Positions 1 to 60,150 are shown, numbered from the whole stretch's first letter. The stretch: DNA of 63,051 nucleotides, filler included, from Asterionella formosa (GCA_002256025.1; 8 parts of 8 records of this genome joined end to end with filler, not necessarily neighbours in it), one strand, 5' to 3'. Notes: a model not told the origin generated them from the letters alone. Made by a program: numbers and translations.

Positions 1-2117
1 GCCTTGAGAATCTTGACTGGTCACCTTTTAAATATTTATCCCTCAAAAGTGCTTGTTTTTGGTCATCACAACGGCCATTGCAATGGCCATCACTTACCTT
101 CTCTTATCTTTGTTCCTTAATGTGATCTTGTGGATTGCTTGATCACTGCTGGTTCAAGAATTGGAACTATGAGATGATGGTTCCTCGAGGGCACTCATTC
201 CAATTTAGTTTTGAGCGATTTTAACATTGGTTGTCAAGGCAAGGCAAAGCAAACATTTTGAAATTACAAAGCAAAATGCACAGGACATTTGGTCTGAGAA
301 GGAGGAATGAACCATGACAAGTTTGATGAACCTCAAAACTGCCAAGGAAGATAGTTAATGCTAGAATATAATTAATAACATACATTAGTAAGTGGAAAGG
401 ATTAATAAGTTCTTATATATAGCAGCATTATGAATCATATGTGGTTGAGAACAAGTATGTTCATTGCTTTGGTCCATCTTTCTTTGTCTACTTCGCAACA
501 ATTATATTAACGTATGTTTGGCCGTTGGTGGAGACCATAATGCAATGCATTCAAGATTTAGTTGCCTTTCTTTTTTCCTTCCTCCAAAGATGTTTACAAA
601 CAGAAATTATAGTGGTACATCAAATATGTTGAGCCCACTCAATTTCAGAAATGAATTTGCGTGGGTAAATGTTCCTGTTTCAACAAACAATAAAGGAGGA
701 CCCACATTCCCCATAACATCAATCTTGTATCCTTGATTGATGCAAGGCATTCTCTTGTCACCACGAAAATCATTCCTCTCAATTCCAAGACTCTCTTATC
801 AATTGCATCATTTTAAATTACTTTGAAATGGATCAAATCCTTCTTGTACTTTTCGTTGAAACCTGTAGATATCTTTCTCCTTTCCTTGTTTTTTGGTTGA
901 AACTTGTAGACAGAATTCACCACAGCAAGCTTTTGGCAATTCTGACAAATCTCCTCTTCATGTTCAGACATGGGCATTGGATTTATGCTGACGGGCAAGG
1001 ATTACCTTCAGTGCCTTGCTTGTTAGTATTGTTACCATTTGTCGTGTTTCTTTCTATTCGTTCTCCCTTTGTCACTGAAAATCAATTGCAAGTTTCCAAC
1101 AAGCTCATGGAACATGGAACGAATGGTACTACCTGTCACCAAGAACATCTGAGACTCAATGAGGATGACATTGCTGGTCGATCATAGTTATAGCAAGGAG
1201 TTGATGGTGAAGATCAAACAATGACAAACAGAGGTATCATCATGGTGAGTGTAGCAATCAAGTGTGAGGCTGTGGCTCCTCAGTGTATGTGGCATGTATT
1301 TGTCAAGAGATTCATGATGGTTTATTATTAACAAGTGGTATGTTCATTCATATATTTAATGAAGAGGAAATGAACGACATCAACTTGGACGACTCTACTT
1401 TTATGTATTCAAAACAAATATTGGGTTGTGCTAAAATTTACAAATGTAGAACCAGCTACTGGTACAATGGTCCGGTGTGTACCTGATGTACTTTGGGGGG
1501 GCCACCAAGCCATAATTTGGATCGAAGTGCTGTATACTACCGGTAGGTACATGGTATGGTATGGTACCAGGTACCCTGGTACCAGGTACCAGGTACAACA
1601 GGGGCCCTATCGTGAGAGACCACGTATGTACCAGCACACCCAAGTCCTTGCCTTTTTGCTTGGTGACGCTGGTTCCTAAGATACCAGTACGATAGTTGAC
1701 AATTGCCCATTCACACATGATACTTACGTAATTTGCATCGAAGTGCATAAACACAGATTCCATCAAGACAACTACTACATATGTAAAATGCCACGAGAAA
1801 ACAGCTACCAGAAAAAAACGGCCGTTCATCCGGTATTTCCCTCAAATGATCAAACTTCACTCCAAGTTCAACATAGTAGTACTAGATATACCGTGTTAAA
1901 TTATGAAATGGGAATGAACGGAAGTTCAGACTTCGGCTGAAAAACCGGCCTACTGTCCGAACATTTCTACGAAAATCAGCGTAAGTGTCCGGTAGATGTC
2001 TGATGATTGGCAATATCGGATGCGAACAATTGATTCAAAAAACCGATATTAGATTCAGTCCTTCAAGATTGCGAAGAAAGGTTCAACCCCTAGCTTCGTC
2101 TCCAAATTCTGATGGAT

Positions 2118-2347
2118 GATGGGAACACTGAACTGCAGGCTTAAATCTGTATTAGTCTCGTAAAGACAAGGTCACATGATTCACGTCAAATTGCCCCTTT
2201 AACAAAGCGACGAGAAGATTGAGCCTCTATATTTCTCTAGAAGATGGGAACACTGAACAGCGGGCTTTAATCTGGAAAAGAAATCAAGTCAAACTCGGCA
2301 CAATTCTGTTCACAATGGCTCCTTAACAAAGCGACGAGAAGCTTGAA
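2118..2347. repeat. Degenerate ~125-bp tandem duplication upstream of the SEL1 gene
   Basis: GATGGGAACACTGAAC at ~2118 and ~2243; TTAACAAAGCGACGAGAAG at ~2199 and ~2323. Confidence 0.75.
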
Positions 2348-2530
2348 TGAGAAGAGTGGGCACAAATGCGAAGATTCTCGACCCCATTTTCAAATTTAGT
2401 TGCTGTTCATGAGCTCATAAATTCAATTTGCAGTGAAATTTCATTAGTATCACATCACACATCCTTAACGATTTATTCAAAGTAAAAAGAGACTGCGTTA
2501 GCATTGACAGTCAACCTTTCTCACTCAATC

Positions 2531-6940: not shown

Positions 6941-6944
6941 TTGG

Positions 6945-7810: not shown

Positions 7811-7910
7811 NNNNNNNNNNNNNNNNNNNNNNNNNNNNNNNNNNNNNNNNNNNNTTAATTAATTAANNNNNNNNNNNNNNNNNNNNNNNNNNNNNNNNNN
7901 NNNNNNNNNN
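7811..7910. other. Artificial contig spacer (N44-TTAATTAATTAA-N44); also at 15720, 23615, 31518, 39412, 47304, 55182
   Basis: Seven identical 100-nt spacers containing a six-frame stop linker; the flanking contigs are all ~7.8 kb. Confidence 0.97.
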
Positions 7911-8124
7911 TGTATATAGGGTTAGTGTTATATCATATATGTATAAGAACTCAATAATGAGAGAACTCGACTAACCCTCATTGTATACTTTGGTGTCGAC
8001 TTGGAGAACGAGTTACACACAAGGATTAACAAATAAGCTCATATGTTCAACAAATACTACTACTTCTAGTTAGATACTTCACTCCGTACCAGGTATCGGT
8101 ACCGGTACCGCACACCGGTATACC

Positions 8125-8566: not shown

Positions 8567-10589
8567 GTAACTAAATTTTTAAGTACGCGTTATTGAGCCT
8601 CAACTTTAGTGTGGAGTTCGTTGGGTCGCACATGACCTATGTACGACGCTAGATATCATTAGATGGTATAAGTCCTATATAACGTTAACCTTATAGGCTC
8701 TTCTATACAGACCATATCCTTGTTTACTCTCACTGTAAAGATTTACACAATACACACTGTGTATGTATACCACGTCAACCATAAGTGAAAGGTGCCTGCA
8801 CATGACTACCTGGTACCATGGAACCCATACGTAGTACATACATATACATGTACACGAGAGTGATCATGCATGATTAGTACGTGATGCTATACACACGGTT
8901 ACTAGTATGTAGCTCGTAGCACATATTGCATTATGTACCCGAAGCTAAATGTTACGTGATAACTATTGGTACAGATGTATCTCTAGAATAGACGTACCAA
9001 TGCTAGGCTAAAATATGACACCTAGCATGGACTCTTGACACCTAGTACATGCCCTTCTCATCAAGACTGTGGATCCCCTTGGACTAGGAACTTATATAGA
9101 TACACTAATCATTAAGCTCATAATTACCCAGAACCTACTTGTTAAATCCTGACAACTGTAGGGCAGCACTGGGGCGCAAAGCGCCCGGTTCGATTAGATG
9201 GACATGGACTTAGACAGGTGAAGAGGGACAATGAGGGGTTGTGCAACGGATAAGAAATTTTCGGATTGTGCCCTGATGGCGTTTGTCTTGTCGAATTTGG
9301 GATGTGAGGCATAGTTGACCTGCTAGATAGATTGCCAGCAAGGCCGTCATTGCCAACGGGGAATGAAGTAAGCGTTGAGAGAGAGGAAGGCCAAATAGAT
9401 GACCACGTTAATCAGCTGGGTGCACTAGTGGCAAGGAGAGTGGCTCCATAGACGAAATCATTGCGATATTCCACTGTTCCATGGCATAGGCGCATAAGGA
9501 GTTGAATAGTTGACTTGTCCAATGAGAGGATTCATAGGGTTGGTCGGGATGCCTGATGGAGTGATAGGTTGTCATGGCATGAGCCCAAGAAACTGATAAA
9601 TTTCCCCTTAGGAGGTGTTTCCACCCTATAGCTGTTTGTTGGACATCTGCCTGATAGGTAATCCAAAGAAGAGGGTCATTTGGAGAGGGGTCTGGAAGAG
9701 GCCAAAGTGGGGGAATGTCGCCATTTTCCCACAATTGGAGACCATGGGTGAGGGCAAGGAAAATATGGGGAGGAGTGCTAAGTTTGGATTTCAGATGGTC
9801 AGAGAGTGTGGTCCACTTTGTATCCCGAAAGTGGCAAGAAGCTGAGCAGGTGAGGACATGATCGTGGTCCTCAACGGCATTGGAGCAGCGTGGGCATAAG
9901 GAAGTTGGGGCTTTGCCATGGTGGCGATGTAAGATTTTGTTGGTGGGCCATTGTCCATTTATTAACTTAAACATTGCTAATTTGCGTCCATATGAGAAGT
10001 ATTTATTTGCGCTGGTGGAAGACGTCCAGTCAATAGAGTCAGAGATTGACTGCATCCATCTATGTCGTGTTTGGAAGTATGTGAATTGTTTGGGCTTATA
10101 GTACGCTTTCAGAGTTGTAGGGATCATCTGAGAGGTAACTTGAGATCCCTGAAAAAGGAGGGTGGCGGGGACTTGAGGGGAACAAAGCGGAGTAATGGCG
10201 GAGCGCTGGGGGCAGTAGAGATAGGCTAAATGAGTGATTCCATCGACTTGGATATTAAGTTTTGCAGGCAGAGTTAAGGCTTCATAGGGTTTGCTGTCAT
10301 CTTGATGGCTTTTGATGTGAACCGCCTGGAGATCAACCGGGATATATGCAAGGACCTTCTTGACTCAGTGGATAAGGTCCCAGTCTGGGTGGAGACTGTG
10401 GCGAATTGAGTGTTGATGGTGGTGAGACAGAGGGCCTGGTTGTCGATGTGAGCTCCAGTGGTGAAAGGAGTAAGTGTATCTAGAAGATCGTGGTATGTAA
10501 GAAGAGCCCGAAGAGCAAGAACAGCACCAAGATAGCCGCAGCACTTCTCTGTCTGGAAGGAGAAAAGGGGAGTGGTGGTAAAGGTGGTG
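8567..10589 (-). mobile_element. 5'-truncated non-LTR retrotransposon (RNase H/CCHC-bearing, Ambal-like), copy 1
   Basis: Closely similar to 21288-22820; CPRCSNAVEDHDHVLTC zinc knuckle and the C-terminal half of RNase H, with frameshifts; interrupted by a solo LTR at 8633-9165. Confidence 0.85.
8633..9165. mobile_element. Solo LTR (533 bp) inserted in the LINE 3' UTR
   Basis: TGACCTA...TAGGGCA ends (TG..CA, near-inverted), flanked by GCACA/GCACT; the empty site GGGTCGCACCGGGGC is visible in the sister copy at 21346-21360. Confidence 0.8.
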
Positions 10590-11555
10590 AAGGAATACGA
10601 TTTTTGCAAAAAAGTGTCTGAAGATGCATAAACCGTCAGTCGGGGGAATTTGTGTTTACATTTTAGCATCGAACTTTTTAGTCGCCTAAAGAACAAGGAG
10701 TGTATTGTTTAATGATTGTATCTATTTCTATAATATACAACAAAATGACCTAATTCAGATTCCACAAAATTATGCCACACGACATGAAGTACCACCTGGT
10801 ACATACATGAAAGTCAGTACAAAAAAGTGGTTGAGGTATTTCTTGCATTTTGAGCTGTTGCACCCTTTCCGAGATTTGATTTTCTCAATGTTTCTCATCA
10901 ATTTGTACAGTAGATCGAAATAACTATCTATCATAAGTTATCAAGCTAGTTACTATGGACTCAATGATGTCTCTACTTTGGTTGTAGCTCCAAAATTGAG
11001 CAAACAACGACGAAAACAATTTCCAGCTGCAATTTCAAGTTTCCGTGGTCAAAATTAGAGCAAAGTTTTTCATCATTGAACGATTAACTCGTCTATGTCA
11101 GGCTTTATATTGTTACGAAATAGGAATGGTCGATTGTCAGTTTTCGTGGAGATATTGAGTCCGATCAGTTCGTCATGGTCTAGACGAAGATGGTGAATCT
11201 ACAGCAGTACAAAATCAAGTTTACTTAGGTGTGATTACCACATACTTAGATATATGTACCCGAATATAAACCTCACATGCATTATTTTAATTTGGTGTAT
11301 TTATAGTCCTTAATTCATATTCATGCCTGTATGTAATAGTGATGTTAAGATTGTCGCTACCTAAGAGTACCTGTTAACCTGGTACCAGGTACCAGTTCCA
11401 CCTGACGAATGAAGTACAGGTATATACACACACATAAGATGGCAAACTTGTGTACAGCCAGGTGTTAAACTTACCGTTACGCTGCCAGTCCGAGCCATAC
11501 TAATGGTGATCTAATGATTCTAAACTGCCCTGGTTCTGGTATATAGTACATGGTA

Positions 11556-13358
11556 CTCCCTATAAGTTCAATACATATAGAACCATTACCAACCAGTGCT
11601 AGTATATATATATATATAAAAGGGGGAACGTCTTTTGATCCAATGCAGCCGTGCAAAATGGCACCAGAGACGAAAACCCCTTATCATTACACCCAACTGT
11701 TAAAAAAGATCATCCAGAAATGTGCTAGCCAACTCAATTGCTCCTTCCCCAGCTGCTAACCTATCAGGTAAAATTCCCGCCCTTTCCAGAGCCGCCTTCC
11801 CAATGTGAGGTATATTATAATTGTTGTCGCCATTAACCAAAATAATCTCTTCCAAGCAACCCTGTAGTGTTAAGAAAGAGCAATTTAATTTGGTTGGTAA
11901 AAAAAAGAATGCTGCCTGCACCGCCTCTATCAAACCGTCGATGTCGTTGTGGGCTTCTTCCACAGAGTCCCATTGATGACTGTAATGCCCTAAAAAGATA
12001 GATCGTTGATATTCAAATCTGGACTGTTCGCTGGTTGCTAAGTCAATCGAATTCCCATTCTTCATCTGTTGCAGCTGCTACAATGGGAGCAAAATCGGAA
12101 CCAAAATGTGTTGAAGCATTGTTATGCTGTAGATATATTCGTTTGTTTCCATCAGGCCACTTCGCTTTTACCATAGTTAAAACATTATCAACAATCATGT
12201 CAGCATATGACTGTTTTGTCACTGGGAGTGACTTTGTTTCCATTGTCCCTGCCGGTCGATAAATTGAACTTCTTTGTGCTGCTACTTGGCGCACAAAAGG
12301 CCAAATTTCAAATTTACCATCAAACGTAAACACTTTTTCGTCATCAAAACGCGGACGTGTCACAGCAGAAAGGAACATGACCTTTTCGATATGCTCCTTA
12401 TGTTTCGTCCGCCTTGTGGGAGCCTCTTCTCCATGAGTCAGATATATTTTCAACTTTCCTTCTGAAACAAAGAACCACTTTTCATCTATATGGACCTGGT
12501 CGTAGAACCCATCATAGTTACCAAACAGTCCCGGATCAAAATCAATGTCAGGGGAAGGATGTTCTTGATCTGGATGGTTCAATTGTAAATGATTATCACA
12601 ATGCATAAAGGGGATTATCTTACCCTCCTCCGAAAGCATTGGCTTGACTGCACTTGTGTGCAGTCGTATAACATTCTCTCTGTTATCCTCTGCAATCCAA
12701 AAAACTGTTGACTTGGGAAGGGCAAGAGCAGCTGCTAATTTACGATACGTAGTACGCTTGCGATATGGAATACCTCTAATTGCTGCAATTATTTTTTCAC
12801 TTGGGTATTTGCAGTATTTGCAAGTACACCCAGTCAATAATTTGCGGGAAAGCAATGCAAACACGTAAGTATCATCATTATAATAGGATTCGAGCGCGCG
12901 GTTCGAAATACGTTGCATAGATGTTTTATCAACTTTGAACCGGCCCGCCAAAAATTTAACGGTTCCACGCACTGAAATGAGCCGACCATCTATTTTGTCC
13001 CCTCCACCAGGTCCGTTTTGGAGGTTCCGTAAACCATAATCCAACACGAGTTGACGCTCTTCTGGTGTTAGATCCTTTCTCATGATGTGCTTGTTGAGAA
13101 GAGGTGGTGGCAAGAAAAAAGGGGGGTCAGGCATCTGCATTTCGCTCGAGATGAGCAAAAGTGGAAGTCGAAAAAGCCGAAAAACGTTTTTTTCAAATGT
13201 AGTTGCCAATTTTAATCTTTCTAAATATTATATATACATGGATCCGTAGCTTAGAGCAAGTTGTACCATAGGGCTATTGAGCCGGAGAAATTCCTAGGAA
13301 TCAAGATGGCCCCGGATAAATTTTAATTATCGATGCAAGTGTTACTAGACAGAGGGAG
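11556..13358 (-). mobile_element. DD39D mariner (plant/oomycete-type) DNA transposon with degraded transposase (~11700-13083)
   Basis: HIDEKWF, KVMFLSAVTRPR, IWPFV, QHNNA (D->N) and, after a frameshift, QPANSPDLNINDL. Stowaway-type terminus TA|CTCCCTCTGT (rc of 13349-13360); weaker opposite end TA|CTCCCT at 11554-11561. Confidence 0.88.
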
Positions 13359-13848
13359 TACCAGTTACTGCCGGTACACATCTGTGCAAGTTCTGATACC
13401 TGTAATTGTGCTGTAATTGGGTGCGCTCTGATAATAAAAAATTATTATATCATGTGTATTATAACACAAATCGTTGTACCCATAACCCCAAAATTTGTGT
13501 TTGTGTTCACCAAATTTGGTAAACCTGGTAAGCACCTAATTGGGCGCGCTTTGATAATAAAAAATTATTATATCATGTGTATTATAACACAAATCGTTGT
13601 ACCCATAACCCCAAAATTTGTGTTTGTGTTGACCAAATTTTTTTCAGTTATAAATAACAGTGCATTATATAAAAAGATGTTTAGACATGAATGACTATAT
13701 AGAATCTCCTGGAATATTTCAAGACTTGCTTGCTCATACTCAAAATGGCTTGCTCTTGCCAAAATAGGTATGCATATACATATGCATATCGTTACATATG
13801 AATCAACCTCCTCAATAAATCGATCATCATCGCTTTTAGATTTTGGCC

Positions 13849-15073
13849 ATGTCTTCATCTTCTTCTGGTCAAAGGAGAGCAGCCAGGGAGGGCTTCCCTT
13901 CCTCTCCAAGGCTGCTTGAATGTCGCAGTCACCAGCAACAAGAACAACAACAGACTCAACCGGAAGAAGAGGAGGAGGAACGACGACGAGAATGAAGATG
14001 ACACTGGTGCTGATGAGTTTGCCAGTGACGATGAGGACAGTAGGATAGGTGTCCAAGGTGTTTCTCAGATTGGTGTTTCTGGGGTTACTCAGTCCCCATC
14101 AAGGAACAACAACGATTTTTCACGTGCTCCTACTACTTCAGTTTCAAGAACGGCAACTGCCAGGCGAGCACCAACGTTTCCAAGAGCTCGCCAAAGCATG
14201 CAGAGTCGGAGTCAACAGTTCAGGATCAATGAGATTCTCTCATTGCTGGAAGCCATTTCTACTCACCTGCCAATTGAATCCCATGAATGGGAAGTTGTTG
14301 CATCACAGCACAACGAGAATTTCCCAGACAAAGAACGGACAGGACCTTCACTTCGCCGAAAGTTTTCACAGCTGCACAAAGTTAAGAAACCAACTGGGGA
14401 CCCAACATTCCCTGCTGAGGTGAGATATGCCAAACAAATTTTTCGAAGAATCGAGCAACGAGCAGATGAAAGTGCTGAGATTGAATCCACTGATCTTGGA
14501 ATAGAGAGAGAGCCCAATGAGCCCAATATTGATGAGCCAAATGTTGATGATTTTATAGCGATTTCTGGGGAGAGTGAAGACAATGGTGGAGCAACATCTG
14601 CCGCTTATGCTAATTTTTCTGGTTCAAGATTTCCTCAACCTATTGTGTCCCCTCGATTTAGAGATAAGGCAGTGTCAAACAATACTGGGCCAGTTGAGAA
14701 AGTGCTTTCTCTTCTTTCGACACAGTTGCTTCACAAGGCTACTTGAACTGATACTGATAACCTGCAGCAGCAACAACAACAGCAGCAACAACTGCAGCAA
14801 CAGAACATGATGAACATGATGATGATGTCAATCATGGCATCATTGTTGAATCATGGGGTATCTCAAACAACCACCTCCACTGGCAGTGCCAATCCCACTC
14901 AGGCAATTATGAATTCAATTATTGCTTCAAACATGATTTCAATGCAGCAAACAATGCAAAGCCAAAATCTAACCTCATCAGCAGGTTCCAATGCACAACA
15001 AACTTTGTCTGCCTCAACTCAATGTTAAACACCAAAAAACAACAGTGGTAGCAGTAGTAGTGATGATGAATAA
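13849..15073 (+). pseudogene. Accessory Myb/SANT-like (DUF6818-like) protein of the Harbinger-group element
   Basis: FRINEILSLLEAISTHLPIESHEWEVVASQHN...RTGPSLRRKFSQLHKVKKPTGDP core; frameshift near 13975; in-frame TGA at 14744-14746 followed by a Q/M-rich tail in the same frame. Confidence 0.7.
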
Positions 15074-17874: not shown

Positions 17875-18425
17875 TACACTGTCAACTTGTGAACATTACA
17901 GGAGTGACTTAGCTACTAAAGTGCGTGTTATAATATCATACTCCGCAGTACGATGCAGAATACAGTTCCCAATCCACATTGAATGATTGATAAGATGATA
18001 ATGTGATATCACGATAGTGTTACTTTTATGCATACATCACCAAAATATAATACGTAATATTGAATAAAGTATATCACATAGCTATGATACATCGATCATA
18101 GAACTATGATGGTTTATCAAAAAGTTTATTATATATTTTAATCAAAATATGATTATGTTGAAAAAATACAATGATAATAAAATACTATAAAATATGTACA
18201 CAAATATTATCAATACATCATAGAAAATAAATAAATCAATCATAAAGTATGTTACTTAATATGTTTACAGTAAAAGCAAATATTTAATATGATAGTATTA
18301 TATTGTGAATATGATCTAAGTGTACAGATGTGTTGATATGAACATCACCATAATATGATTTGTGATACTATGGATTGATGCATATCGCATACCGGTATTC
18401 TCCACAACCATCCATCATGTTCTTT
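17875..18425 (+). repeat. AT-rich dispersed repeat (reverse copy at ~45009-45580)
   Basis: AGTACGATGCAGAATACAGTTCCCAATC...TTGAATGATTGATAAGATGATAATGTGATATCACGATAG is the reverse complement of ~45437-45507. Confidence 0.8.
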
Positions 18426-20974: not shown

Positions 20975-21287
20975 GTGTTATACATTTATAAAATTCAAAG
21001 GCGCTCTCGATATGGAACATCTGATATGGTTGGGATGATCATACTCGCATATGCATAATTCGAAAATACTCAATGCACTATATGTCCATTGTTTTCCACG
21101 ACTACCTGTACTGGTATTGTTTCTGAAATTTGTTTGCATCGATATTTTCTACGTCCGTTGAAACTAATTATTTAGACCGTTCAATTGCCACAAGGGTTTT
21201 GGTAGCAAATTGTTTAAGCCCCTTTTTTGGTTGGGAGCTCTTCATGTGTACCGGTACATCATATGACAATAACAATATATCATATAT

Positions 21288-33402: not shown

Positions 33403-33456
33403 TTAAGGTTCCTGCATTTGAACCCCTAGCTCGAGATAGGGTTTTAAAAAAATTAA

Positions 33457-40380: not shown

Positions 40381-40399
40381 TCCGTTGTTACCAACCAAG

Positions 40400-43274: not shown

Positions 43275-43650
43275 TAATTATCAATACCTGCACAGTATAG
43301 ACCTGTCATTAGCTTGACATTCTTTCTTGAAAAATGATTCCCATTGGTAATCGCTTATATTTGCCCCAAGGAAAAATTAGCTATAGTACATGAGTTTTGT
43401 GCCTCTTTATCTACACGAATTGTATAGTATCCCATGTAAAGGTCTAATGCCGTGGCATATGTAAACCCTTTGAGCTCTTGGATGAGGTCGGATATTTTTG
43501 GGATAGGAAACGGTTTTTGTTTGATATTTGCATTTAGCCGGCGAAATTCTGAAACTACACGGACTGTACCTAACGTTTTTGCCATGATAAATGTAGGAGC
43601 GGCATGTGCCGAGTCACTACATTTCTCTAACACGCATAAAATCGCACAAC
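43275..43650 (-). mobile_element. Ty3/Gypsy RT N-terminal half (same element as 40400-40926)
   Basis: APTFIMAK..GTVRVVSEFRRLN..PFPIPKISDL..ATALDLYMGYY, YKRLPMG, IFQERM; ends at a decayed (Y)IDD motif. Confidence 0.85.
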
Positions 43651-46700: not shown

Positions 46701-49177
46701 AAGTGCAGCTATGGGAAATGTTAAGAGAACAAAGCTACCGAAATTTTTTAACCCTATTTCCACACGAGGGATTGACCACCACAAAAATCCACCACCCCAC
46801 CTGACATGGGGCATGGAGCGCAAAGACCTCAACTCTAGAAAAAGACCAGTAAGAATGCGCCATTAAGATGATTAATGCATAGAATGATTTAAACTAATTT
46901 GAGAATATACTAAAAGATATATTTAGACACAAATAGAATGAAAGACTTACCTTATTTTGGCAACCAGCTTGCCAATATTAGAGTAAAAACACAACAATAC
47001 CCACCAATAGCTTGTTACCGGTTTGCTCATTTTTCTTGATACATTTGACAGTAGAAGAAACACTGTAGCAGATGAGACAAACTCCATGTCAGGAGGAATA
47101 CCTACCTTTCCAATGTTTGTAATTGGTGGATAGATATTTTAAACAAAAGAATTTGATTTACAGCCTGCATACTGGCTACTAGTATTGCGTATGCACAAGA
47201 TCAACAGTGACAGTCGGGCAAGCATACCGTTAATCTAAACCAATTTTCGTATACAAAAAATGAAAGTCATATACATTATATAATATATTTAATTGATTGA
47301 ATCNNNNNNNNNNNNNNNNNNNNNNNNNNNNNNNNNNNNNNNNNNNNTTAATTAATTAANNNNNNNNNNNNNNNNNNNNNNNNNNNNNNNNNNNNNNNNN
47401 NNNAGGAGGTTGGGGTGCAACTCTTGTAGCTACTTTGCACATGATGCTAGTACCAGGGCATCTGGAACGGTTGGCAGGCAGTGTGGGGGGAGGGAAGTGC
47501 AAATACTTAATTGATAATGCATTAATAGCCTATGATATCTGTACAAATATGTAGTGTGTGTGCTGGCACAGTACCGGTATTCAGTACTACCGGTTTACCG
47601 AGTTTTGGGCTACGAGTACCGGCTACACCTGCTACTGCTGCATCTTGTCTAGCTGCAATTGGGTTACGTACTCCCAGGTATCATGCGAACACAAAGTGAA
47701 GCAAGCAATGACGAAAGGATGAGTGGGTGGCTGCGGCATCGTCTACTACTAACTGCTCGCTCCGAGTATTGGTGCATAATAACAAGAACGGTGACTCCGG
47801 CTGTAATAAAATTGCTGAAGGCAAGATATGCCTGAGGTGGTCTCTTGCCTTCGAGTACACATGTATTCGAGAAGGCAAGTAGCCGCCAAGAAGGGTATTG
47901 CTGATGAGGCAATTCACAAACAAGCTATCATTATGCCATTCACTTACCTACTGCCCACAAGTATAGCATAAATGTCAAGTTTAGGTTGCTATTGCCCATC
48001 ACATAAAATATATTTTGGATATTTCCTTTATTCTCATCAAATCTTGCCAAAGGTCTGATATTGCCCATCATTAAAATGTCTCTTGTTGCATATTGTAGAA
48101 TGTTGCATGTGTACAAATAAGACGCTTTTCAAAGCAATGACGAGATATCGAGGTATCATCTAGTATGTCATAGAGCCCACTTGTGGTTTTCCGATTTTGC
48201 TGTTTCGGCTACTATATATAAATAATAACTTCACTTTTATAGCGCCTTAAAGCTACTCTATTGGAGATGGGGCAGCTCGCATGGCACTTCCTGGCATGAA
48301 CAGCCTCGACATCCTGTGTTCCAGTATATAATGAAGCTTTGCTTGATTTTTTTCTCTTCCGACCTTGATAATCAACACAAACGCCAAATCCACCGTTATT
48401 TCTGGTTGTATGATCTCTTTCTTGTCCTTGTAGTTGCGCACTGTTTCCCTTGCCGTGGCGAGCTCCTTCGCCGCAAATTTTTCCGATTTTGACGACATCG
48501 CCACATCGTCACGATCACAGTTTGACGCCATTACCGCCTTGATTTTCTTCATTTTTCCTGTTATGAAATCACTTCCTTTTAGCGCCTTTGTCAAATTCTG
48601 CCGTGTCGAACATGATGCCTTTGTGGTGCTAGTATCATTGCGACCAAACCCCAGTGATGTTGTTTTTGCCATGGCGATGGCGCTGTTTTGCTTGCTTCTT
48701 ATTGAAGAATTCTTCTAATGTAATAATTGCTGTGATTACCCAATTTTCTTCTTCCTTCACATGCTCGCCTTTATACTTAGCGAACAAATAATCTTTATTT
48801 TAAAATAAGTTTCTGCTATATCTAAACAAATGTAGTAGCTACAAATAAAATCGTTTACAATAGGCTAGCAACTATTCGATTCTATGTATTTGATTAGTAT
48901 AGTACAAGAGCAATTGAGGGAAAGTTGTCATGATCACTGTCGTCAAATTGTCAGCGATTTGTTGTAGCACAAGGCAACAACCCTCCACGGAAGCGTGCCA
49001 GCCCTTGCATGACGCGCTCTAAATATATATATTCAGTTCTGAATAATTAGCTAATATTATTTAACCCCCAAAAATGATTGCCGTTAAACGATTTTAAGCA
49101 CATTTCCGTATGTCCCAGGTACGACCGCTAATCCCTATGCTGATGGCTGTTGCTCTTTGCTTACCTGGTGAGTAATA

Positions 49178-49867
49178 CTGCAAGTTGCGGTGATTCTGCT
49201 CAACTTATATATATATATTTAGTCTGTAGTCTGTATGCATGGCTGGGTGCAATTTTTTGGGGTCTCGAGGTAGACACCGTAGATAGGACTAGCATTAGCA
49301 ATAACCCTGACCCTACTGTATATGATATTTTTCGCCTAAAAACATTAGTAACACCACTACCTGTATTTCAAAAATGATCCTAACTATTATCGATAGGGTA
49401 CCTGGTACATTAAATCCAGATCAAAGGATATGCGGTTTTTCACTTTGGCCAGAAAAGACTACTTTTGGAGACTTCAGGAAATTCCATGCATTTCCTGAAA
49501 TTTCCTTACGCATTTCCTTACGTTTCCTTAAGTTTTCCTGAAAGTCATAGGCATTTCCTGATAGTCATAGTCATTTCCTGAAATTTAGAGGAATTTCCTG
49601 AAAGTCATAATGCTTCCTGAATGTCATAGTCGTTTTTGCAATTAGAAGAATTCCGCTATTTATTTCGCTGAATCGTGCTATGAATAGAAGATGTTCTTTA
49701 TACGTTATAAAATATGTCGATGTCCGGTGACATGTTGTCCGTTTCAGGAAAATGACCGCTGGTTGAAGGTACAACAACGAGATGCGGTAATTTTGCTTAA
49801 ATAAACAATTCGATTTGGGATAAAAACAGCTAAATCGTTAGTTCAGCAAAATTACCGCAACTTGATG
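49178..49867. mobile_element. ~690-bp MITE with TA TSD (Tc1/mariner-type)
   Basis: TA|CTGCAAGTTGCGGTGATTCTGCTCAACT ... AGTTCAGCAAAATTACCGCAACTTGATG|TA (23/28 TIR match); internal TTTCCTGA/GTCATA short repeats. Confidence 0.75.
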
Positions 49868-50415
49868 TACTCCACCTAGTACTAACTAGTGGTACCAGGT
49901 ACCAGGTACCAGTCACCAGGTACTGGTACCCTGGTGCCTGGCAACGCTATAAAGATATACCAGTGTACAGAGTGCTAAGAATATTCATACTTCATAACTG
50001 TCTGTACTTTTTTGTTCGCTCCTTGGAAAGTCTGGTGAAACACGTTTTTTATGAGTATAACAGTGTTCCAGTAGTGTTCCAGTTGTTTGTGTAAATAGCT
50101 CGATGTAAAGTCTTATACTTGGAGATGGCATTAAATCTAATCCTTCTTTCACACTTGGCTGTTGCACCTGAAAAAGCCTATAAATTCAACACAAGCATCA
50201 TTTATTGCATCACCATAATCCTAAATGTCACGTTTTTAGTAATGTGATTTCAATTGTGATGAGTGAATGATTACTCTGAATCAATATTTTTCTGTAAATG
50301 ATCCTAGTTTGAACTAGCGGATTAAATGCAGCAAGCAACCTTCTAGCTAGCTGGTAGCCTATGGTGAGTTAATATGCATATATATTAATTTCGATTTTAG
50401 AAGTGTTAGGTCCAA

Positions 50416-51585
50416 TCAGGTTGTGTTGAACTTCACCAAAAGATCAAGGTTGTTGCTGAGATGAATGTTTGGATTCTGGCATAATCTTCTAGTACCTGCC
50501 TTATTCAACCTCGAGTAGTGTGTGATATTGTTTTTGGTAGTTCCTAGACTGCTACCGAATAGTCCCAAGAAGTTGTCAACCTGAACATTTTCTTTCGGAG
50601 CAACAACAATTGCTTCACCTCCCGTATCTGTGATTGTGTCTTCAGACAAGTCGAGATCTTCCAACAAATAATGTTGCTTGAAAGCACCAACTAACGCAAT
50701 AGCGCCAGTGTCACTAATACAGTTCATCATGAGGCGAATATCCCTCAGGGACATGTTACTCGTGAATCCTTTCGTGATAATGGCAGCTCCGTTGTCATTC
50801 AGGTTGTTTCCCCACAAGTACAGCATGCGAAGAGACTTTGTCTTTGCTAAAAGTGAGAAAATTGAATGAGCAGCATTGCTGTCAACATGAGATCCCGTAA
50901 TCACTAGCCTCTGCAAGGTAGTGTTGTGTTCTGCATACGAGCAGATACCCACAATTTCCTCAGAACCCAATTCAGTATGCACAAGAAGCAAGTTTTTTAG
51001 GCTGCGGTTGCGAAGCAACATTCGTCCAATAGAATCTGAACATGTTGGTCCGATACTTCCTTGTTGAAGGCAAAGCTCTTCAAGGTGAGTGTTTCTCCGA
51101 AGAGCCTCCGCAATCATGACTGCGCCTTCTGATCCTATTGGGTTGTTTTTGATATGAAGGACACTAAGCTTCGTATTGCATCTCAGCATGGAGGCAAGGG
51201 AATTGATTGCGTAGGGTCCAATCTCGTTGTTTTCCAAGTGAAGCTCTTTAAGTGAATGATTCTCTTTCAGGGAGTCAAATATGGCAATGGACCCATTCCC
51301 CGTAATGCAGGTGTTGCTCAATCGCAAAACTCGGAGTTTTGTGTTCACCCGCAAAACAGAGACTAATGCAGCAGCAGTGCAAATATCAATTGAGTCTCCA
51401 TCAATCCACAATTCTTCTAAATGTTTATTTTCTCCTTGTAACGAATATAGTATGGTTCGAAAGGCATCACAGCCCAATTTCGGAATGCTCAGTCGAAGTG
51501 TCTTGATGTTCTTGGCTTCGTAAATGAGCTCAAAATGTTGAGACAACCATCTATGGTTGGGTGAGCTGCTTCGTCCCATAAACAT
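50416..51585 (-). CDS. Ribonuclease-inhibitor-like (NLRC3-like) leucine-rich repeat protein, possibly pseudogenised
   Basis: About ten 28-aa repeats of type N..L..L.L..N.IG..GA..IA.AL; C-terminal LNKAGTRRL. An upstream in-frame ATG at 51678 is separated from the ORF by a TAG at 51640-51642. Confidence 0.85.
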   Translation of the reverse strand: MFMGRSSSPNHRWLSQHFELIYEAKNIKTLRLSIPKLGCDAFRTILYSLQGENKHLEELWIDGDSIDICTAAALVSVLRVNTKLRVLRLSNTCITGNGSIAIFDSLKENHSLKELHLENNEIGPYAINSLASMLRCNTKLSVLHIKNNPIGSEGAVMIAEALRRNTHLEELCLQQGSIGPTCSDSIGRMLLRNRSLKNLLLVHTELGSEEIVGICSYAEHNTTLQRLVITGSHVDSNAAHSIFSLLAKTKSLRMLYLWGNNLNDNGAAIITKGFTSNMSLRDIRLMMNCISDTGAIALVGAFKQHYLLEDLDLSEDTITDTGGEAIVVAPKENVQVDNFLGLFGSSLGTTKNNITHYSRLNKAGTRRLCQNPNIHLSNNLDLLVKFNTT

Positions 51586-52251
51586 GATTTTGAGGACATG
51601 TGCATTTACTATTGACTTTGATCCATTAAAGAAACAATTCTACACAATGAGTTCTTCAACACTTCCATGCCATTTCATGTGGAATTCATGGCTGTTGTTC
51701 TCGTTCGTTCCTGAATCCCGCTAATCTACCAATACCAGCTATGTATATCTCATGCTGTCGGTCGTCTCTCGCCTGTGAACTTTACATAAATATTGCATGC
51801 ACCTGCTGAGCAAACAAATATGAATTATTGCATGCAGAATTTTGAAGCAAATAGCAGTATAGCAATTGTATGACATCCGTATTAGGTGTATGCGGATAAT
51901 AATGCCTATATGCAAGGTGTAGTACATAATTATCCTTTCATATACCGGTATGTAGAGTGTTACAAGTAAGGACATATCAATTTCAATGAGACACATTAAT
52001 AAGTCGTCTGACAACAAGTTATATTATATACAGGTAATATACATTTATGTAGGTATTCCGGGGAGTTGACGGTAATTCCGAAGTACGAGAAGTCACGTGT
52101 AAAAACTGTGTTTCATCTAAAATCGACCTCGTATCACGTTTTCTGAATCGCTCAAAGGCCAAAGAACGCGAAGTTGGCAAAGAACAGCAAAAGTACGCAA
52201 GAGAACATGAGGTTCGCAAAAGTTCGCAAAAGACCGCAGAAAAACGTCGTA

Positions 52252-52936
52252 CATTTGCAAGTTGCGGTAATTTTGCTGAACTTCGATTTTTTTTTTATCA
52301 GATATAAAATTGTTTTTTCAAACAAAATGACCGCATCAGGTTGCTGTACCTGCAAGCTGCGGTAATTTCAGGTTTCTGTTACCGGACAGCGACATATTTA
52401 TTATGCATATATACTTCTAAAGGACATCTTCTACCGGTATTCATGGAATGATTCTGCGAAATAAATAGCGGAATTCTTCCAATTGCAAAAATTGTATATG
52501 ACTATGACTTTCAGGAAATCATTATGACTTTCAGAAAATTCCTATGAATTTCAGGAAATGACTATGACTGTCGGGAAACTTTTGGAAATGTCAGGAATCA
52601 TAAGGAAATGCGTAAGGAAAGACCAGGAAATTCCTGAAGTCTCCAAAATTAGTTTTTTCTGGCCAAAGTGAAATACCGCAGATCCTTCGTTCTGGATCTA
52701 ACATACAAGGTACCCACCCTACAGGTAATAGTTAGGATTATTTGAAAGACCGGTAGTGGTGTTACTTACAATTATTATTATTAAATATATATATATATAT
52801 TTAGTCTGTACGGAGTAGTCTGTATGTATGGCTGGGTGCAATTTTTGGGGCCACGAGGTAGACCCATTACATAGAGGCCTAGTATTAGCAAAAACCCTGA
52901 CCCTACTACTGCATATATTTTTTTGCGCCTAAAAAC
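52252..52936. mobile_element. Second, inverted copy of the TA-TSD MITE; outer TIR missing
   Basis: TA|CATTTGCAAGTTGCGGTAATTTTGCTGAACT; 52252-52768 is the reverse complement of 49346-49867; inserted at a TA inside the GGGAGTTGACGG repeat. Confidence 0.75.
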
Positions 52937-52974
52937 CCATGTTCAAATCACATTTGTGCAGTGACATGGGAACT

Positions 52975-53529
52975 CACCCTGGAGTCTTTTCGGACAGAGA
53001 ATTATTCAGCAAAACATACCTACTCAAGACTCTAAGTCTACGAGAACGTTTTTGCACGTACTAATTCCGATTCCAATATTTCGGCGACTGTTGAAAAAAC
53101 CGATCTGGTCGACTTTTTGGAAGAGGATTGCTCTACATCTACGGATTTTCATGACGATTAAAATAGATAGCCGTGTACCCTATAACGTCAGGAGTTAACT
53201 TCTGGAGAGAAGTGGCAGTTATGTATCGTTAACTTTTTGAAAAGCTTTGTAGCCCCTTTTTTTGACTAGTTTTGCGGTAGTTACGAATCTCTGATACATA
53301 ACTGCCACTTCTCTCCAGAAATGGGGTCCTTAGCATATCTGTATATAGATCATAACCCTAAGTCGAGCAATGAAGGTATCTAAGCATATGCAAAGTGGTC
53401 GTAATGGTGAAAGCTAATTTTACCTTCAACTATTATATTTACTTGTGCGTGATGTGTGGATTGAGGTCCATCATAAAAATATTTTGGGAAAAAACAGACC
53501 TCGCAATTTGTAACTGCGGGGCCGCAACC
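52975..53529 (-). mobile_element. Truncated copy of the 1144-bp TTAA element
   Basis: Ends GGGGCCGCAACC|TTAA at 53529; reverse-aligns to ~33457-34005. Confidence 0.8.
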
Positions 53530-54170
53530 TTAAGTAAAATCAGTCAAATTCAGTCACGGCAGTATACATTGGGGGGTCCAGGACAATGAAGTATACGGGG
53601 GGGGGTATCTTGCAAACTAAGTTCAGACCGTTCGTTTACTCTGTTTAGCGGTGGCTTACAGTTCAAAAGTCTCCATAGCAGTGGCTTACAGTTTTTAACT
53701 GGTACTTGTTACCAGGACCTACCATGATAGTACCAGTAGTGTTGATGTTTTCCCTCAATTGTGATCGCCGTTAGGAATCAAGATGAACACCACGACTTAT
53801 TTTGCGAGGTTGATGATAGTATATCCTGGTATGAAATAGAATAAGAAGCCAAAGAACTGCTGTCAATCGTCTTTCACATCGCTGGACATTTGACACCAAA
53901 GTCCTGTATTTTACCTACGACCTGATAAGCAATGTACGTAGGCTCCACCGTATACCAGAGCAAGTTGCGTTAAATGAGAAATTCAACGCTGTTTTCCTGA
54001 TAGTAAAACCCCTCTTTTACAGCAACTCCGACAAGACCTGTTGAAGTACCTGTTAGGGTTGGTAGCAGGTACATGGTATACTTCGCTCACACAAGAACAC
54101 GTCCAAGATTCAAAAGTGGACTTTTGACTTTTCCCACTGAACAGTGAACACAAAAACGGAAAAAATCATC

Positions 54171-54845: not shown

Positions 54846-57431
54846 ACCAGGATTTGATGAGCCCGTCTATGCCTTGACTGGCACACCCAGTACATCTACT
54901 GGAAATAAGTGCCCTCAACGTGATCAATATATATTTTGCTTTTTGATTACCAGTATTTGGTTCAGAGAGTTTCGCTTCATTCGTACACCAGAAGTGGTTG
55001 CAGGCATCAACAAACACCGTACTGTCACGAAAAATCATAGAAGAGCCCTAATGATGGTGCACTATTTAATTACATCTTTTCTAAGCCCTTATGCTGTAGT
55101 AATGATACCATTTGTAACTGCTGGTTTTACCTAAATCTTTGCTACACACCATTTGACGTTTAATCGGAGTAAGTTTGAGAANNNNNNNNNNNNNNNNNNN
55201 NNNNNNNNNNNNNNNNNNNNNNNNNTTAATTAATTAANNNNNNNNNNNNNNNNNNNNNNNNNNNNNNNNNNNNNNNNNNNNAACCAGAAACAAGAATTCC
55301 ATCTCCTCAGCATTCGTTCAGTTGTTGTTGTTCTCGATTGGACATGGCCTGATATTTGATCACAGTCATCATTTGCACGATCGAGTCGTCGCGTGGAACG
55401 CTCAGTGGTAGCGAAAGGTACTTCTTGACGTTTTCGTTCGTTGTGAGCGACCACAGCCCTTCTCGCTGCAAGCTGTCGAAGAATTTGCCACTGCATCGAT
55501 TTCGGAGTTCAATTGAGTTTTGCAGTTCTCAAGAGGTGAGCATGACAAGATCCATGTTTTTTTGGAACGTTTGCTCCAACAAAAAATGATTGACACAGCG
55601 GCTCGTAATACCGGAATGTGAATCTATGTATGATTAAGTGATGGGCTGGTGACAAAAACTTGGAGTCATGCATAATACATAAGTGAAAACAGAGCCGAAG
55701 ATCCACACAAATTTTTTCTTATGTAGCGATGTGCCACATCCATCGGCGGCAACAACACAATTCTGGCACGACTGCTTGGCTAGAGTACCGGTAACGGTAC
55801 CTGGTACCAGTACTACAAACAACTCCATGTCTACTTAAAACATAACGATACCTGGTACCAGTAGTCTATAGTTCCGGTAGACTAAGCGAAGATCGGACGA
55901 TCATTTCAATCGTTTGAAATTTCTTTTTTGGGCTTCCACCAATGTAATAACAAGTGGTCCGGTATACTTATGTAATTTGTGGCCCTGCGTAGGTAGTTCC
56001 TGGTACGCGTTACCAGGTACTCCCTCTGTCTAGAAACAGTTGCATCGATTCGCCGGCACCACCAGTGTCTTGACTGTTCGCATATGAAGGATTATGTAGC
56101 CAACATACAAAATTTCTACGTGAGTGTCCGCTTACTCGAAAAAATGCGTTTTTAATGAGTTACATAGACGTCAACATATACCGGTACTCGGTTTCTGTTA
56201 TTAAAATTTTAGCATGTAAATATATTATTCCAAACCAATTCAACATACGCATATTCATTGCAAGCATCTACATATGCTGTTTCACATCGGCCGGCCAGTC
56301 AAATATTTGCGGAAAACAAAATACAACAAGCCACTATCATAATTATAACATGAATAGAATAATTGTCGTTCTGTATACTTTCTACGGTTGTTGCACCTAC
56401 ATGGACCCTGCCACCGGATGTTTAATGGTTACAATCCTCAGAACGAGCATACCGTCGTTTTCTTCCTTCCCATCATCGCCACTTTCGTGGTTGCACATTC
56501 CATAATTGAACGCAAGTTGCAGTTGTTCTACTGTTATATCGTACTTTGTACGTATGTTGAGACTAGATGGTTCGAAGAAAAATGGGTCCTCATGATGCAT
56601 CTGCATTTTGCTCGAGATAGCTAAAAGTGAAAATCGAAAAATCCTAAAAACGTTACCAGATAACGTGCTCCCGAGTGCATGTGTTGAGTTTACTGCGTGG
56701 AGAGTACATACATTTATGTACGAAGACAACCAGGCACGGAAAGTCCAGTAAACGCTATCTTTACCTCAAAATGTGTTTTACCGGAACTTCCCGGTAACTT
56801 ATCCAAGGCAAGCAAATTACTGTAAATAAACATACCGGCATATCACCTTACAGGTAGCGGTAAAACCGGTGTATTGCGTTACCGTACCAGGTACCAGGTA
56901 CCGGTACTCGGCTTGGTATGCATCACCTGTTTTCAAGGCCTGGGAGGTACGGGAAACTCCGTACTTCCTCGATACGTGGAAAATTCCTTTTGTGTATCGT
57001 GCATAGACCTCGCTGTTTTTTTTCAAATATCTTGCAAAATTCGAATCGCGCGTTCTTCTGCGAAGTTCGCGTACGTCTTGAAAAGTACGCGCGACGACCA
57101 TTTCGTCGAATCGAGTTTGAGCTCTGATTAGGCATTAAACATCCACGGGCAATAATAACATTGTTCATCACACAGTATACCGGTGTCCGGTGTCCGGTAC
57201 CAGGTACCAGGGGGTACCGGTACCGATACCTTGTACGGAGCACCTGGTACCAGGTGGATTACCGGTACCGTATTCCGTTTCTAATCATTCAACCCTCTAC
57301 CTGTATCTACCCTAGCATCAGGTACCAGTACCAGGTACCAGTGGTACCCTGGTACCTGATACAATGAGCGTACATGTCGGCACCTTGATGTAACTTCACG
57401 TGCCGGTATCCGGATGATAATACCCGCCGCA

Positions 57432-58225
57432 AAACCTGGTGTCTCGTATCGCCCCAGATACCTGTAACCCCCCTTCGTACATCTGGCACAACACCCCCAA
57501 ATATTTTATGTCTACAGAAAAAATAACAGCATATTATTGTATTCTACCCAGTTGTTCATGTATTTACTTTTTAATTGTATTCTTACTGGTCACCAACATG
57601 AAACAACAATTAACAACAACACGAGCGATGCCAATGACATTTGCGATGGCAATATCCTTGTCCTGAGATCTATTTCAAAAGCCGAGTTTGCAACTTGCAT
57701 GCTTGTTGTGGAGTGATTATCAAGCTGAATGCTAAAGGCTCAGGCCATTCTGGCCTTGATGTTGTCGGCTTGCCGGAAGTGTTCACAGAATCATTTCGTC
57801 TGCTGCGTCATGATGCAAAAATATTTCGTGCATGTCATGATTCTGGTCAAATAATCATATAAGTGATGTGGTTGGCTTATATTAATTTCCATCACGATCC
57901 AAGTCATAGAGTCTACACAAGTTAATACTATTGTAGGATTTAGTACAAATGGTTACACACTCTAGGAATTACTATTGATGCCATCAAAAAACTCGGGCGT
58001 GCCGGTGCACCAAAAATAGAAATTCTATTGATCATAGAAACTGTTTGAACCTACAACATTATATCTTTTAATGTTGCTATTCACGTTTTAGACTACGGCA
58101 AAACCAGTGGTGAAGTTGGTTTGCTCGCAGTGTTGGATTATCGAAAAAGGTCCAATGTCTTGCACTCCCCTCTAAGTAAAATCAGTCGTGGCTGTGTACA
58201 TTGAGGGGTACGAGACACCAGGTTT
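57432..58225. mobile_element. Probable non-autonomous TIR element (~790 bp)
   Basis: 17-bp perfect inverted repeat AAACCTGGTGTCTCGTA at 57432-57448 and 58209-58225; no TSD recognised. Confidence 0.5.
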
Positions 58226-59006
58226 CATGGTATACCGGTAGTTTCAGTACCGAACGTATCCCCTACTAGCTACCTGGTATGTACTGAGTCCTGAGTATGC
58301 TCGATTTTGTGTAGATAGAAAACCATAGATCTATATAGCACGGAATTATGTTCAAGGAGTAAAATATACCGGTAATTCACAATACTGGTACATTTTTGAT
58401 ACTCGTTGTCACACCATGCTCAATGCATCGTTCTTGGTTTCAAAAAAGCAGTCATAATCCATTTGACCAGTGGATATTAATGACAAATATTTAACACACT
58501 GACGGAGATCAAACGAAAAGAACGCGAAGTTTGCAAAAGACCGCAAAAGTTCGCTAAAGACCTCAAAAGACCGCAAAAGAACGGGAAAACCCGGATATAC
58601 GACGTTTTTCTGTGTTCTTTTGCGGCCTTTTAGCAAACTTCGCGTTCTTTTGCGGTGTTTTGGGAGAAGGTGATGCGAGGTCGATTTTAGATGAAACACT
58701 GTTTTTGTACCATGATTTTTGGTAATTCAGAGTTTCCGTCAACTCCCTGGTGGCGCACGTTTTGTGCGCATTTATTCAGTTTCGACTTACTCCCAATGAC
58801 TTGTCCCATGCCTACCGGATGAGATGGTTCACCAATTAGTAATTTCTAGTCATCTAGTCGTTGTTAGCAAGTTCTAATTGTTGTCAGCAAGTTCTAATCA
58901 TTGTCAGCAGATTTCTAGCCATATGTAGTCAACAACTGAGGATCAGTAATCATAAACAAAAGAGTCATTTGAAAATGTCAATGAACTATTAATTGATATT
59001 GTTTAA

Positions 59007-60150
59007 GGTTGTGGCCCTGCAGTTACACATTGCGAGGTCTGTTTCTTTCCAAAATATTTTATGATGTACTTCAATCCACACAGTACGCACAACAAAATTA
59101 AATAGGTAAAGGCAAAATTAGCTTTCACCAATATAACCACTTTGCATATGCTTAGATACAGTAATTGCTCAGCTTTGGGGTATGATCTATTCTCAGATAT
59201 GGTAAGGACCACTTTTCTGGAGAGAAGTAGCAGGTATATCTCTATGAATTGTAATTATCCAAAAAGGGGCTGCGAAGCCTTTAAAAAATCTATGAGGGAT
59301 AACTGCCACTTCGCTCCAGAAGTGAGCTCCTGACGTTGTAGGGTACACGGCTATTCATTTTAATCTTAATGAAATCCCGTAGATGTAGAGCAATCCTCCT
59401 CCAAAAAGTCGACCCGATCGGCTTTTTCAACAGTCACCTAAATATTGGAATCGGAATTTTATGAACGAAAATGCTCTCGTGGACATTTGAGTCTTGTGTA
59501 GGTATGTTTTGCTGCATAATTCTCTGTCCGAATAGACTCCATGGTAGCTAAGTTCCTGTGTAACTTCATATATTCTGATTGGTTGAATTGAATTTACTTA
59601 CCTGTTCCAAATTGACTGGAGTATCCCGGTCTTGTAAAATCACGCCAGCCACACTTGAACCACATGTTTTACATGTACTGTGCATATACCGGTAGGTAAA
59701 TCAGCAGTTCTAATTTCATCCTCCTGTCTTCCATCGCCATGAACCATGATTATGTACTACTGGTATATCAGTACCCCGGTATTTTTTTAATAAATGCCTT
59801 CGGGCATAGAGTAATATTAAAAAATACCTACAGCAACGACGATTACATAAAGACGTATAAAAACGAGCAATTAGTGTACATATTGGCATACTCCTGATTT
59901 GCATATGTGTTTGGCGTGGAGAAAAATTATGTCTACATACAGCAATGTAGATATAACAAAGACGTTTAAATATCGTTTTTGTTTGTTTAAAATGGAACTC
60001 TATCAATCTGGCGCCGATTCCTATTTAATTCAAATACTCAAATGGACACTCGAATCATGGGAATTCATAGAAGCAAACTCCTTGTTCCATGCCATTATTA
60101 AAAGCCCAGCGACGTTTTCTCCAAAGTAGGGTTAAGCTGGGGCCACAACC
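59007..60150 (+). mobile_element. 1144-bp non-autonomous TIR element with TTAA TSD, copy 2
   Basis: TTAA|GGTTGTGGCCC...GGGCCACAACC|TTAA; same length as, and colinear with, 33457-34600. Confidence 0.88.

Follow-up and report, generated by a model that had tools for sequence, protein, structure and literature searches.

A TA-bounded palindrome and its relatives in Asterionella formosa DNA: possible excision scars of Tc1/mariner-type transposons

What brings one palindromic octamer, TACCGGTA, to so many places in the non-coding DNA of a freshwater eukaryote? The question is raised by a window (the whole stretch of DNA analysed here, 63,051 nucleotides) from the Asterionella formosa assembly GCA_002256025.1. 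It consists of eight unlinked pieces of about 7.8 kb, between which stand spacers of the form N44-TTAATTAATTAA-N44 (the first at 7811-7910, followed by six further junctions). We tentatively favour the explanation that transposons of the Tc1/mariner type, which move by cut and paste and target the dinucleotide TA, generate TACCGGTA and its relatives as a by-product, mostly as scars of excision.

The abundance of the octamer is not in doubt. Exact copies occur at 23 positions and nowhere else in the window; a sequence-only reading of this DNA had listed the same 23 coordinates, every one of which is accurate, and its count is complete. Taken in order, the pieces hold 1, 1, 3, 2, 5, 0, 3 and 8 copies, and the presence on seven of eight contigs that had been claimed is borne out, the sixth piece being the empty one. 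Less than one copy is expected from composition, as had also been stated: 100 dinucleotide-preserving shuffles yielded 0.26 copies on average and two at most, and none reached 23. An order-2 model predicts 0.7. The excess is about 60- to 90-fold and the density, across all window DNA, 0.37 per kb. Only (AT)n is a commoner octamer in the window, and among octameric palindromes TACCGGTA ranks third behind ATATATAT and TATATATA, while a control palindrome of matched composition, TAGGCCTA, has no site in the window at all. The enrichment is real.

Counted on both strands (46 observed), the Markov expectation is 1.7, 0.7, 1.4 and 3.7 for orders 0 to 3, and rises to 13.9, 30.2 and 42.9 for orders 4 to 6. 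At order 6 the excess therefore disappears (42.9 against 46), an outcome that the sequence-only reading had named as telling against itself; yet the high-order test is circular because the sub-words come mostly from the octamer itself. TA directly follows TACCGG in 46 of 82 oriented occurrences, and A directly follows TACCGGT in 23 of 29. The octamer is likewise absent from host coding sequences, as had been noticed: open reading frames (ORFs) with homologues or a Pfam match, hereafter supported ORFs, comprise 12,072 bases and contain none of the 23 sites, where 4.4 would be expected.

TACCGGTA belongs to a family of words that are bounded by TA and vary in length. TACCWGGTA, with one base more, has 18 sites against 0.7 expected at order 2, and the next-best TA-N5-TA word is AT-rich with 10 sites; among TA-N4-TA and TA-N5-TA words, the CC..GG forms alone stand out. 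GGTACC is found 40 times, TACCGG 41 times on one strand, and GTAC is the most over-represented tetramer (618 observed vs 330). The 131 CCGG sites have TA on their left in 41 cases and on their right in 41, and on both sides in 23, compared with 12.8 expected if the two were independent; for CCWGG, TA stands on both sides of 18 of the 98 sites (9.8 expected). Sixteen sites in the window read TACCAGTA or TACTGGTA, each one CpG transition away from TACCGGTA. The octamers themselves have sharp limits at TA and no flanks common to the sites. Eight of the 23 continue with TACCGGTACT, as does the end of a mariner-like element described below.

The arrangement of these words ranges from solitary copies to short arrays. 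Twelve of the 23 octamers are more than 40 bp away from any other GGTAC word; isolated sites include those at 18390-18397 (whose sister copy at ~45041 reads TACCGGGA), 21249-21256, 30395-30402, 33040-33047 and 33210-33217. The dense clusters split into TA-delimited units of unequal length, namely CCGG, CCAGG, CCCTGG, TGG, GG and CATGG. One such cluster begins with the octamer at 1538-1545 and reaches 1596, and the densest, at 57178-57270, holds the octamers at 57215-57222 and 57260-57267. The copy at 8100-8107 is part of a GGTACC cluster with which a repeat shared with 57211-56947 begins, the one at 47572-47579 has TACCGG half-sites close by, and the one at 55786-55793 stands at the edge of a multi-copy stretch and is followed by GGTACC units. 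Head-to-tail tandem layout is confined to three arrays of period 7: (GGTACCA)n at 1563-1596 and again at 49891-49923, with 4.7 copies each, the latter just within an inverted repeat arm, and (GTACCAG)n at 56884-56907, with 3.6 copies, which ends in the octamer at 56899-56906. Further exact matches are located at 20201-20208, 35271-35278, 35319-35326 and 56179-56186.

How a single copy is gained or lost can be judged where it lies in a repeat with a sister copy; repeat pairs found by blastn within the window cover six of the 23 sites. The most telling case is in two inverted repeat arms of about 700 bp (49172-49870 and 52249-52936, 76% alike), which bracket an LRR (RanGAP-like) gene at 50416-51639 on the minus strand. 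One arm reads CTTC-TACCGGTA-TTCAT, with the octamer at 52432-52439, and the other CTTC-TA-TTCAT, with a bare TA at 49685-49686; the surroundings are well aligned and the difference is exactly 6 bp. It is the sole one of its kind among 24 insertions or deletions (indels) of 4-14 bp between repeat pairs and, unlike several of those listed (e.g. 9198, 20261, 34456 and 52716), it is no tandem duplication of adjoining letters.

Of the other five testable sites, three differ from their sister copies by substitution, one belongs to a GGTACC cluster that both copies share and one is poorly aligned. The substitutions are two CpG transitions, which destroy TACCGGTA, and one T/G change, which is unpolarised. 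In a family of 1.17-kb repeats bounded by TTAA (33453-34619, 59003-60168 and 52946-53547; inverted ends GGTTGCGGCCCC...GGGGCCGTAACC), both octamers, at 34218-34225 and 59687-59694, have undergone a CpG transition in the other copy, which reads TACTGGTA (at 59758) and TACCAGTA (at 34138), respectively. These two sites came with the repeat by descent and are now being lost to CpG transitions; the motif bears no sign of constraint. The family itself looks like a non-autonomous element of the piggyBac type, and a conserved 19-mer from it, scanned against metagenomes, matched 39 loci, none of them homologous to the window and none with TACCGGTA. The sequence-only reading had said that several copies sit in one repeat and are missing from its sister; of the six testable sites, the one at 52432 shows this as an exact indel.

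In the window as a whole, the observed to expected ratio is 0.73 for CpG and 1.23 for CA/TG, which together suggest cytosine methylation. Oomycetes are said to lack it.

How could transposons produce such words? An element with ends that start with CC and finish with GG, a donor that we postulate, would insert at TA and duplicate it. When it is excised by staggered cuts (the width of the stagger being presumed), either flank would keep two or three nucleotides of the element's ends, and end-joining would give TA+CC+GG+TA or TA+CCWGG+TA. The new TAs might be used again, and such serial re-use, likewise supposed, would build short arrays of period 6-7, while scars inside other repeats would be copied passively and later lost by CpG transition. 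For the indel at 52432 we infer the direction from TA to scar. The same explanation might, with a similarly guarded degree of confidence, take in the relatives of the octamer: TACCWGGTA, the TA-delimited (GGTACCW)n units and the TACCGG half-sites. Known footprints of Tc1/mariner elements have this form, TA plus a few terminal nucleotides of each end plus TA, that is, a short TA-bounded palindrome with length variants; Sleeping Beauty and Mos1 also leave excision footprints. They differ from the present words in that footprints are normally rare single events, whereas here we deal with the commonest octamer that is not a microsatellite, and with one that forms arrays.

A family that might be involved is resident in the window. 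The ORF at 12043-13227 on the minus strand has a HIDEKWF motif, and N replaces the near-invariant D of QQDNA. Direct Pfam and PDB searches with this ORF returned no match, and its Atlas score to a 'Tc1-like transposase DDE' cluster is 0.95, with 2,643 relatives. Among 24 aligned relatives, 18 contain DUF7769 and six HTH_Tnp_Tc3_2, and a profile of the relatives has the Mos1 transposase as its nearest hit (E 1.4e-9), with Tc3 and Sleeping Beauty matched as well. Judged by these likenesses, the ORF is the remnant of a Tc1/mariner transposase in a degenerate copy. At least four further fragments of the mariner-like family are present in the window, and they too are degenerate, the copies being about 65% alike. 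Set beside Stowaway and the plant-type mariners, the family has ends that read TA/CTCCCTCTGTC (a slash marks a putative border), apparently close to the Stowaway end, and differs in the degeneracy of its copies; its transposase profile is nearest to Mos1.

Five ends of this family are readable. The 5' end of the element, at 13345-13376 (minus strand), reads TACCGGCAGTAACTGGTA/CTCCCTCTGTCTAG; the other end, at 11542-11561 (plus strand), reads TATAGTACATGGTA/CTCCCT and includes a 17-nt inverted repeat with 13353-13369. A second copy ends at 56004-56033 (plus strand) with TACGCGTTACCAGGTA/CTCCCTCTGTCTAG and a third at 37707-37728 (minus strand) with ATGGTACCTGTG/CTCCCTCTGG. The ends carry TACC(W)GGTAC, and GGTAC-type words are found within 12 nt of CTCCCT at all five. 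Directly outside TA/CTCCCT, letters like (C)CWGG stand at all five ends and GG is next to TA in four, and the flanks of the element at 11542-13376 are inverted copies of each other over 9 further letters. Three boundary models are compatible with these letters: the first nucleotides of the element may be CTCCCT, CAGT or CC(W)GG. Only CC(W)GG would make the family the donor; ends of the form TA/CC(W)G.. number two of five, under that model only.

Several observations weigh against scars. A resident family that ends in TA/CTCCCT or TA/CAGT may be expected to leave TACT..AGTA or TACATGTA scars, and words of these types are not clearly enriched in the window (TACTAGTA has 3 sites and TACATGTA 4). 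The continuation of the 23 sites matches the element's inverted repeat weakly (on average 4.0 of 11 letters vs 3.4, P 0.016). Pairs of TACC...GGTA with at least 13 of 16 letters matching came to one weak pair (33210/35278), no more than with control words. The difference at 52432, a single case among six testable sites, could equally represent a deletion between two TAs, and is unpolarised because there is no third copy. Finally, a 20-mer array, GGTACCAGGTACCAGGTACC, is present in more than 110 bacterial genome contigs from many phyla (Acidimicrobiia, Gemmatimonadaceae, Planctomycetota, Omnitrophota and others), where about one would be expected by chance; therefore (GGTACCW)n heptamer arrays can form without these transposons.

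The search for a donor gave little. The sequence-only reading had proposed to look for terminal inverted-repeat elements that end in TA/CCG..CGG/TA; scans of the window for elements bounded by TA/CC...GG/TA with matching inverted ends yielded no convincing candidate. When TA...TA pairs up to 6 kb apart were required to match in at least 20 of 26 letters of their inverted ends, the arms of the large inverted repeat that brackets the LRR gene were the sole find besides a second pair, unrelated to them, and a scan of genome contigs and viral contigs for the element end had no match. We also considered, and rejected, as a CC..GG donor a repeat with ends at 18465, 6944, 58750 and 52058, since it ends in C(A/G)GGGAGTTGACGG and has TA flanks in one of four copies. 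This repeat (18465, 6944 and 52058 on the plus strand, 58750 on the minus strand) shows the end C(A/G)GGGAGTTGACGGAAACTC, with subterminal repeats of 10/20 bp (GCAAAAGACC) behind it, and we assume from the look of its ends that it is hAT-like.

The first of two options in the sequence-only reading, that Tc1/mariner-type footprints have accumulated, is partly supported: it has the TA bounds, the length variants, one exact indel and the transposase remnant with its TACC(W)GGTAC ends on its side, but the scans yielded no element bounded by TA/CC...GG/TA and the indel is unpolarised. Contigs from other runs add circumstantial detail. In the last piece, seven of the eight octamers fall within 55800-61240, a region of heavy contig pile-up at 90-99% likeness with flanks that are covered by single contigs; 25,776 records of one run (X1) matched this piece at a likeness of at least 90%. 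The points at which contigs break coincide with motif sites or adjoin them (55796, 56884, 56902, 58225 and 58375): many contigs of other runs stop at 56884 and 56902, in the array that ends in the octamer at 56899-56906, those of run X1 diverge at 58225, shortly before the octamer at 58233-58240, and one contig of run X8 diverges at 58375, right behind the octamer at 58367-58374. Compared with random points, repeat-pair ends stand at roughly half the distance from the word family (P 0.004-0.05), in a control that ignores regional repeat density. The contig comparison on the last piece gave no clean triplet of TA, scar and occupied site, in tables that mix paralogues as the piece is mostly multi-copy, and among the indels listed for its contigs none is at any of its eight TACCGGTA sites.

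The strongest rival to transposon scars, although in our view a rather unlikely one, is a site for a dimeric transcription factor, with the core ATACCGGTAT, that is selected near gene starts and is found in repeats only incidentally. Its main argument, which counts against scars, is one of identity: TACCGGTA is the same word as M94 of Phytophthora infestans. Roy et al. (2013, PMC3597505) class this motif as 'high-confidence'; it is conserved in related species, and RXLR, elicitin-like and PcF genes have it over-represented in their promoters. M94 is described as the palindromic sister of M93, TACATGTA, with no known binding protein. The octamer is likewise the motif-9 of Seidl et al. (2012, PMC3520976), who describe an inverted repeat that is abundant, stands upstream of 1,284 Phytophthora genes and has a three-fold enrichment among those of the RXLR type. 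It also matches streme-5, ATACCGGTAT, which lies upstream of 206 genes in Plasmopara halstedii (PMC10031896). The window resembles these genomes in that the octamer is abundant in non-coding DNA and has the form ATACCGGTAT at three of the 23 sites (18390, 26901 and 51943).

Two of these three sites also suit a binding site better than scars. The octamers at 26901-26908 and 51943-51950 both lie within ATACCGGTATA and ATACCGGTAT, which fits the extended consensus of Plasmopara. They precede the first ATG of two host genes, by 353 bp in the 981-aa ORF and by 358 bp in the LRR gene, which is on the minus strand; the two upstream regions are unrelated and cannot otherwise be aligned. By a rough estimate made post hoc, chance would very seldom produce the coincidence of -353 and -358. 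A third site is found 362 bp before a doubtful 116-aa ORF (56155-56505). The absence of TACCGGTA from supported ORFs agrees with a binding site as well. As an aside, the 981-aa ORF (27237-30182, plus strand) belongs to no Pfam family and has a long tail rich in Q, P and Y.

Other features do not suit a binding site. The 60- to 90-fold excess is far beyond what we take to be usual for such sites, and a spacing variant longer by one base (TACCWGGTA) and head-to-tail arrays are present. Copies within multi-copy repeats decay freely, and the octamer is gained or lost as a unit of 6 bp. Moreover, the motif has been described in oomycetes, and the present host, possibly a stramenopile, is no demonstrated oomycete; the window is CpG-depleted and TACATGTA, the sister motif, is not enriched. 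At 0.37 per kb the octamer is denser here than in the P. infestans promoter sets, for which 0.03-0.22 per kb are given (Table S1, PMC3597505), with the reservation that our figure is computed over all DNA, multi-copy repeats included, and not over promoters. According to the account of the reporter assays in the same paper, M94 is not one of the six motifs tested, and neither TACCGG words nor TACATGTA are to be found in the text or two supplements of a 2024 binding-array paper on P. infestans.

A footprint origin of such motifs has been discussed before. TACATGTA is left by Tc1 in Caenorhabditis elegans (Eide and Anderson 1988, as cited in PMC3520976), and in that paper's discussion a Tc1 footprint origin of TACATGTA was considered and rejected with reference to abundance and conservation. 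Among the matches listed in a literature search for the octamer as an enriched genome motif, only the two oomycete papers are relevant; searches on mariner excision footprints in oomycetes, and on Tc1 footprints as over-represented palindromes, brought up nothing on genome-wide footprint words. The octamer is thus already known from oomycetes, and new are its higher density in a freshwater eukaryote and the indel evidence that reopens the footprint idea. It is a doubtful but conceivable extension that the TA-bounded promoter palindromes of stramenopiles (TACCGGTA here, TACATGTA and TACCGGTA in Phytophthora and Plasmopara) are mainly Tc1/mariner excision scars, gathered near gene starts and in repeat-rich DNA, with (GGTACCW)n as the record of repeated insertion and excision at one TA, and that their link to effector genes partly reflects transposon traffic. 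If the words are indeed scars, one short word would preserve a record of how a transposon family once moved about a genome, and the oomycete 'promoter motifs' used for effector-gene regulation would need re-examination. If instead they are binding sites, the motif and its factor would extend beyond plant-pathogenic oomycetes to a freshwater lineage.

Could the arrays be the origin rather than the outcome? A GGTACC(W) heptamer or hexamer microsatellite might grow by slippage, isolated octamers being decayed or minimal arrays that hitch-hike in repeats. We regard this as improbable. It would explain the three period-7 arrays, the array length that differs between repeat copies (24 letters in a contig of run X1 vs 78 in the window, at 57192-57269), the recurrence of the same 20-mer in unrelated bacterial contigs and the two of 23 sites inherited within one repeat family. 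However, the 12 of 23 octamers without a GGTAC word within 40 bp do not qualify as microsatellites, the octamer has sharp TA limits and no common flanks, and no adjoining unit is available for slippage at the 52432 insertion. The bacterial loci are not related to the window, and contain only 8 TACCGGTA in 612 kb together; in viral contigs, a scan for the 20-mer found nothing.

There is still less to be said for the idea that the words are the preferred landing site of the mariner-like family (a TA within ..CCWGG-TA-CCWGG..) or the outermost letters of its inverted repeats, and mark ends or solo ends. It draws on the letters like (C)CWGG outside the border at five of five ends, with GG next to TA at four of five, on the inverted flanks of the element at 11542-13376 and on the eight of 23 sites that continue with TACCGGTACT like the element end. 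Against it stand the small number of element ends to judge from (about five), the isolated sites in unique DNA and the fact that most of the 23 sites do not continue into the element's inverted repeat.

The second option of the sequence-only reading, a site-specific modification or repair process that drives substitution towards the palindrome, as in HIP1 (GCGATCGC) of cyanobacteria, is scarcely credible: both words are hyper-abundant octameric palindromes, but TACCGGTA avoids supported ORFs, varies between copies by an indel and decays, the CpG transitions between sister copies lead away from the motif, the remaining differences (the 6-bp indel and the T/G change) are unpolarised and none is shown to create it, and a Pfam scan of the 90 ORFs of at least 90 aa contained no methyltransferase. 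HIP1 itself is found in and between genes, and its maintenance is attributed to selection or to a methylation-linked process.

Some observations concern the source of this DNA and its other contents. A search of the window against Rfam had no match. Two proteins of transposon type have their closest Atlas clusters mainly in Oomycota, with some from diatoms and plants, and protein searches with two host genes and a multi-copy DUF6818 gene, three ORFs in all, brought up only metagenome proteins as relatives. Two copies of one element, 86% alike and with weak zf-RVT matches, occupy 9158-10588 and 21343-22819, and decayed reverse-transcriptase and RNase H ORFs (40179-40799 and 43358-43735) are located on the sole piece that has no TACCGGTA. 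The DUF6818 ORF (13802-14746, plus strand) is a multi-copy gene with relatives of 87-96% identity, including a cluster of 88 member sequences. The last piece is present in an 'algae metagenome' run, perhaps the source of this DNA, and long contigs near-identical to it occur in three further freshwater studies.

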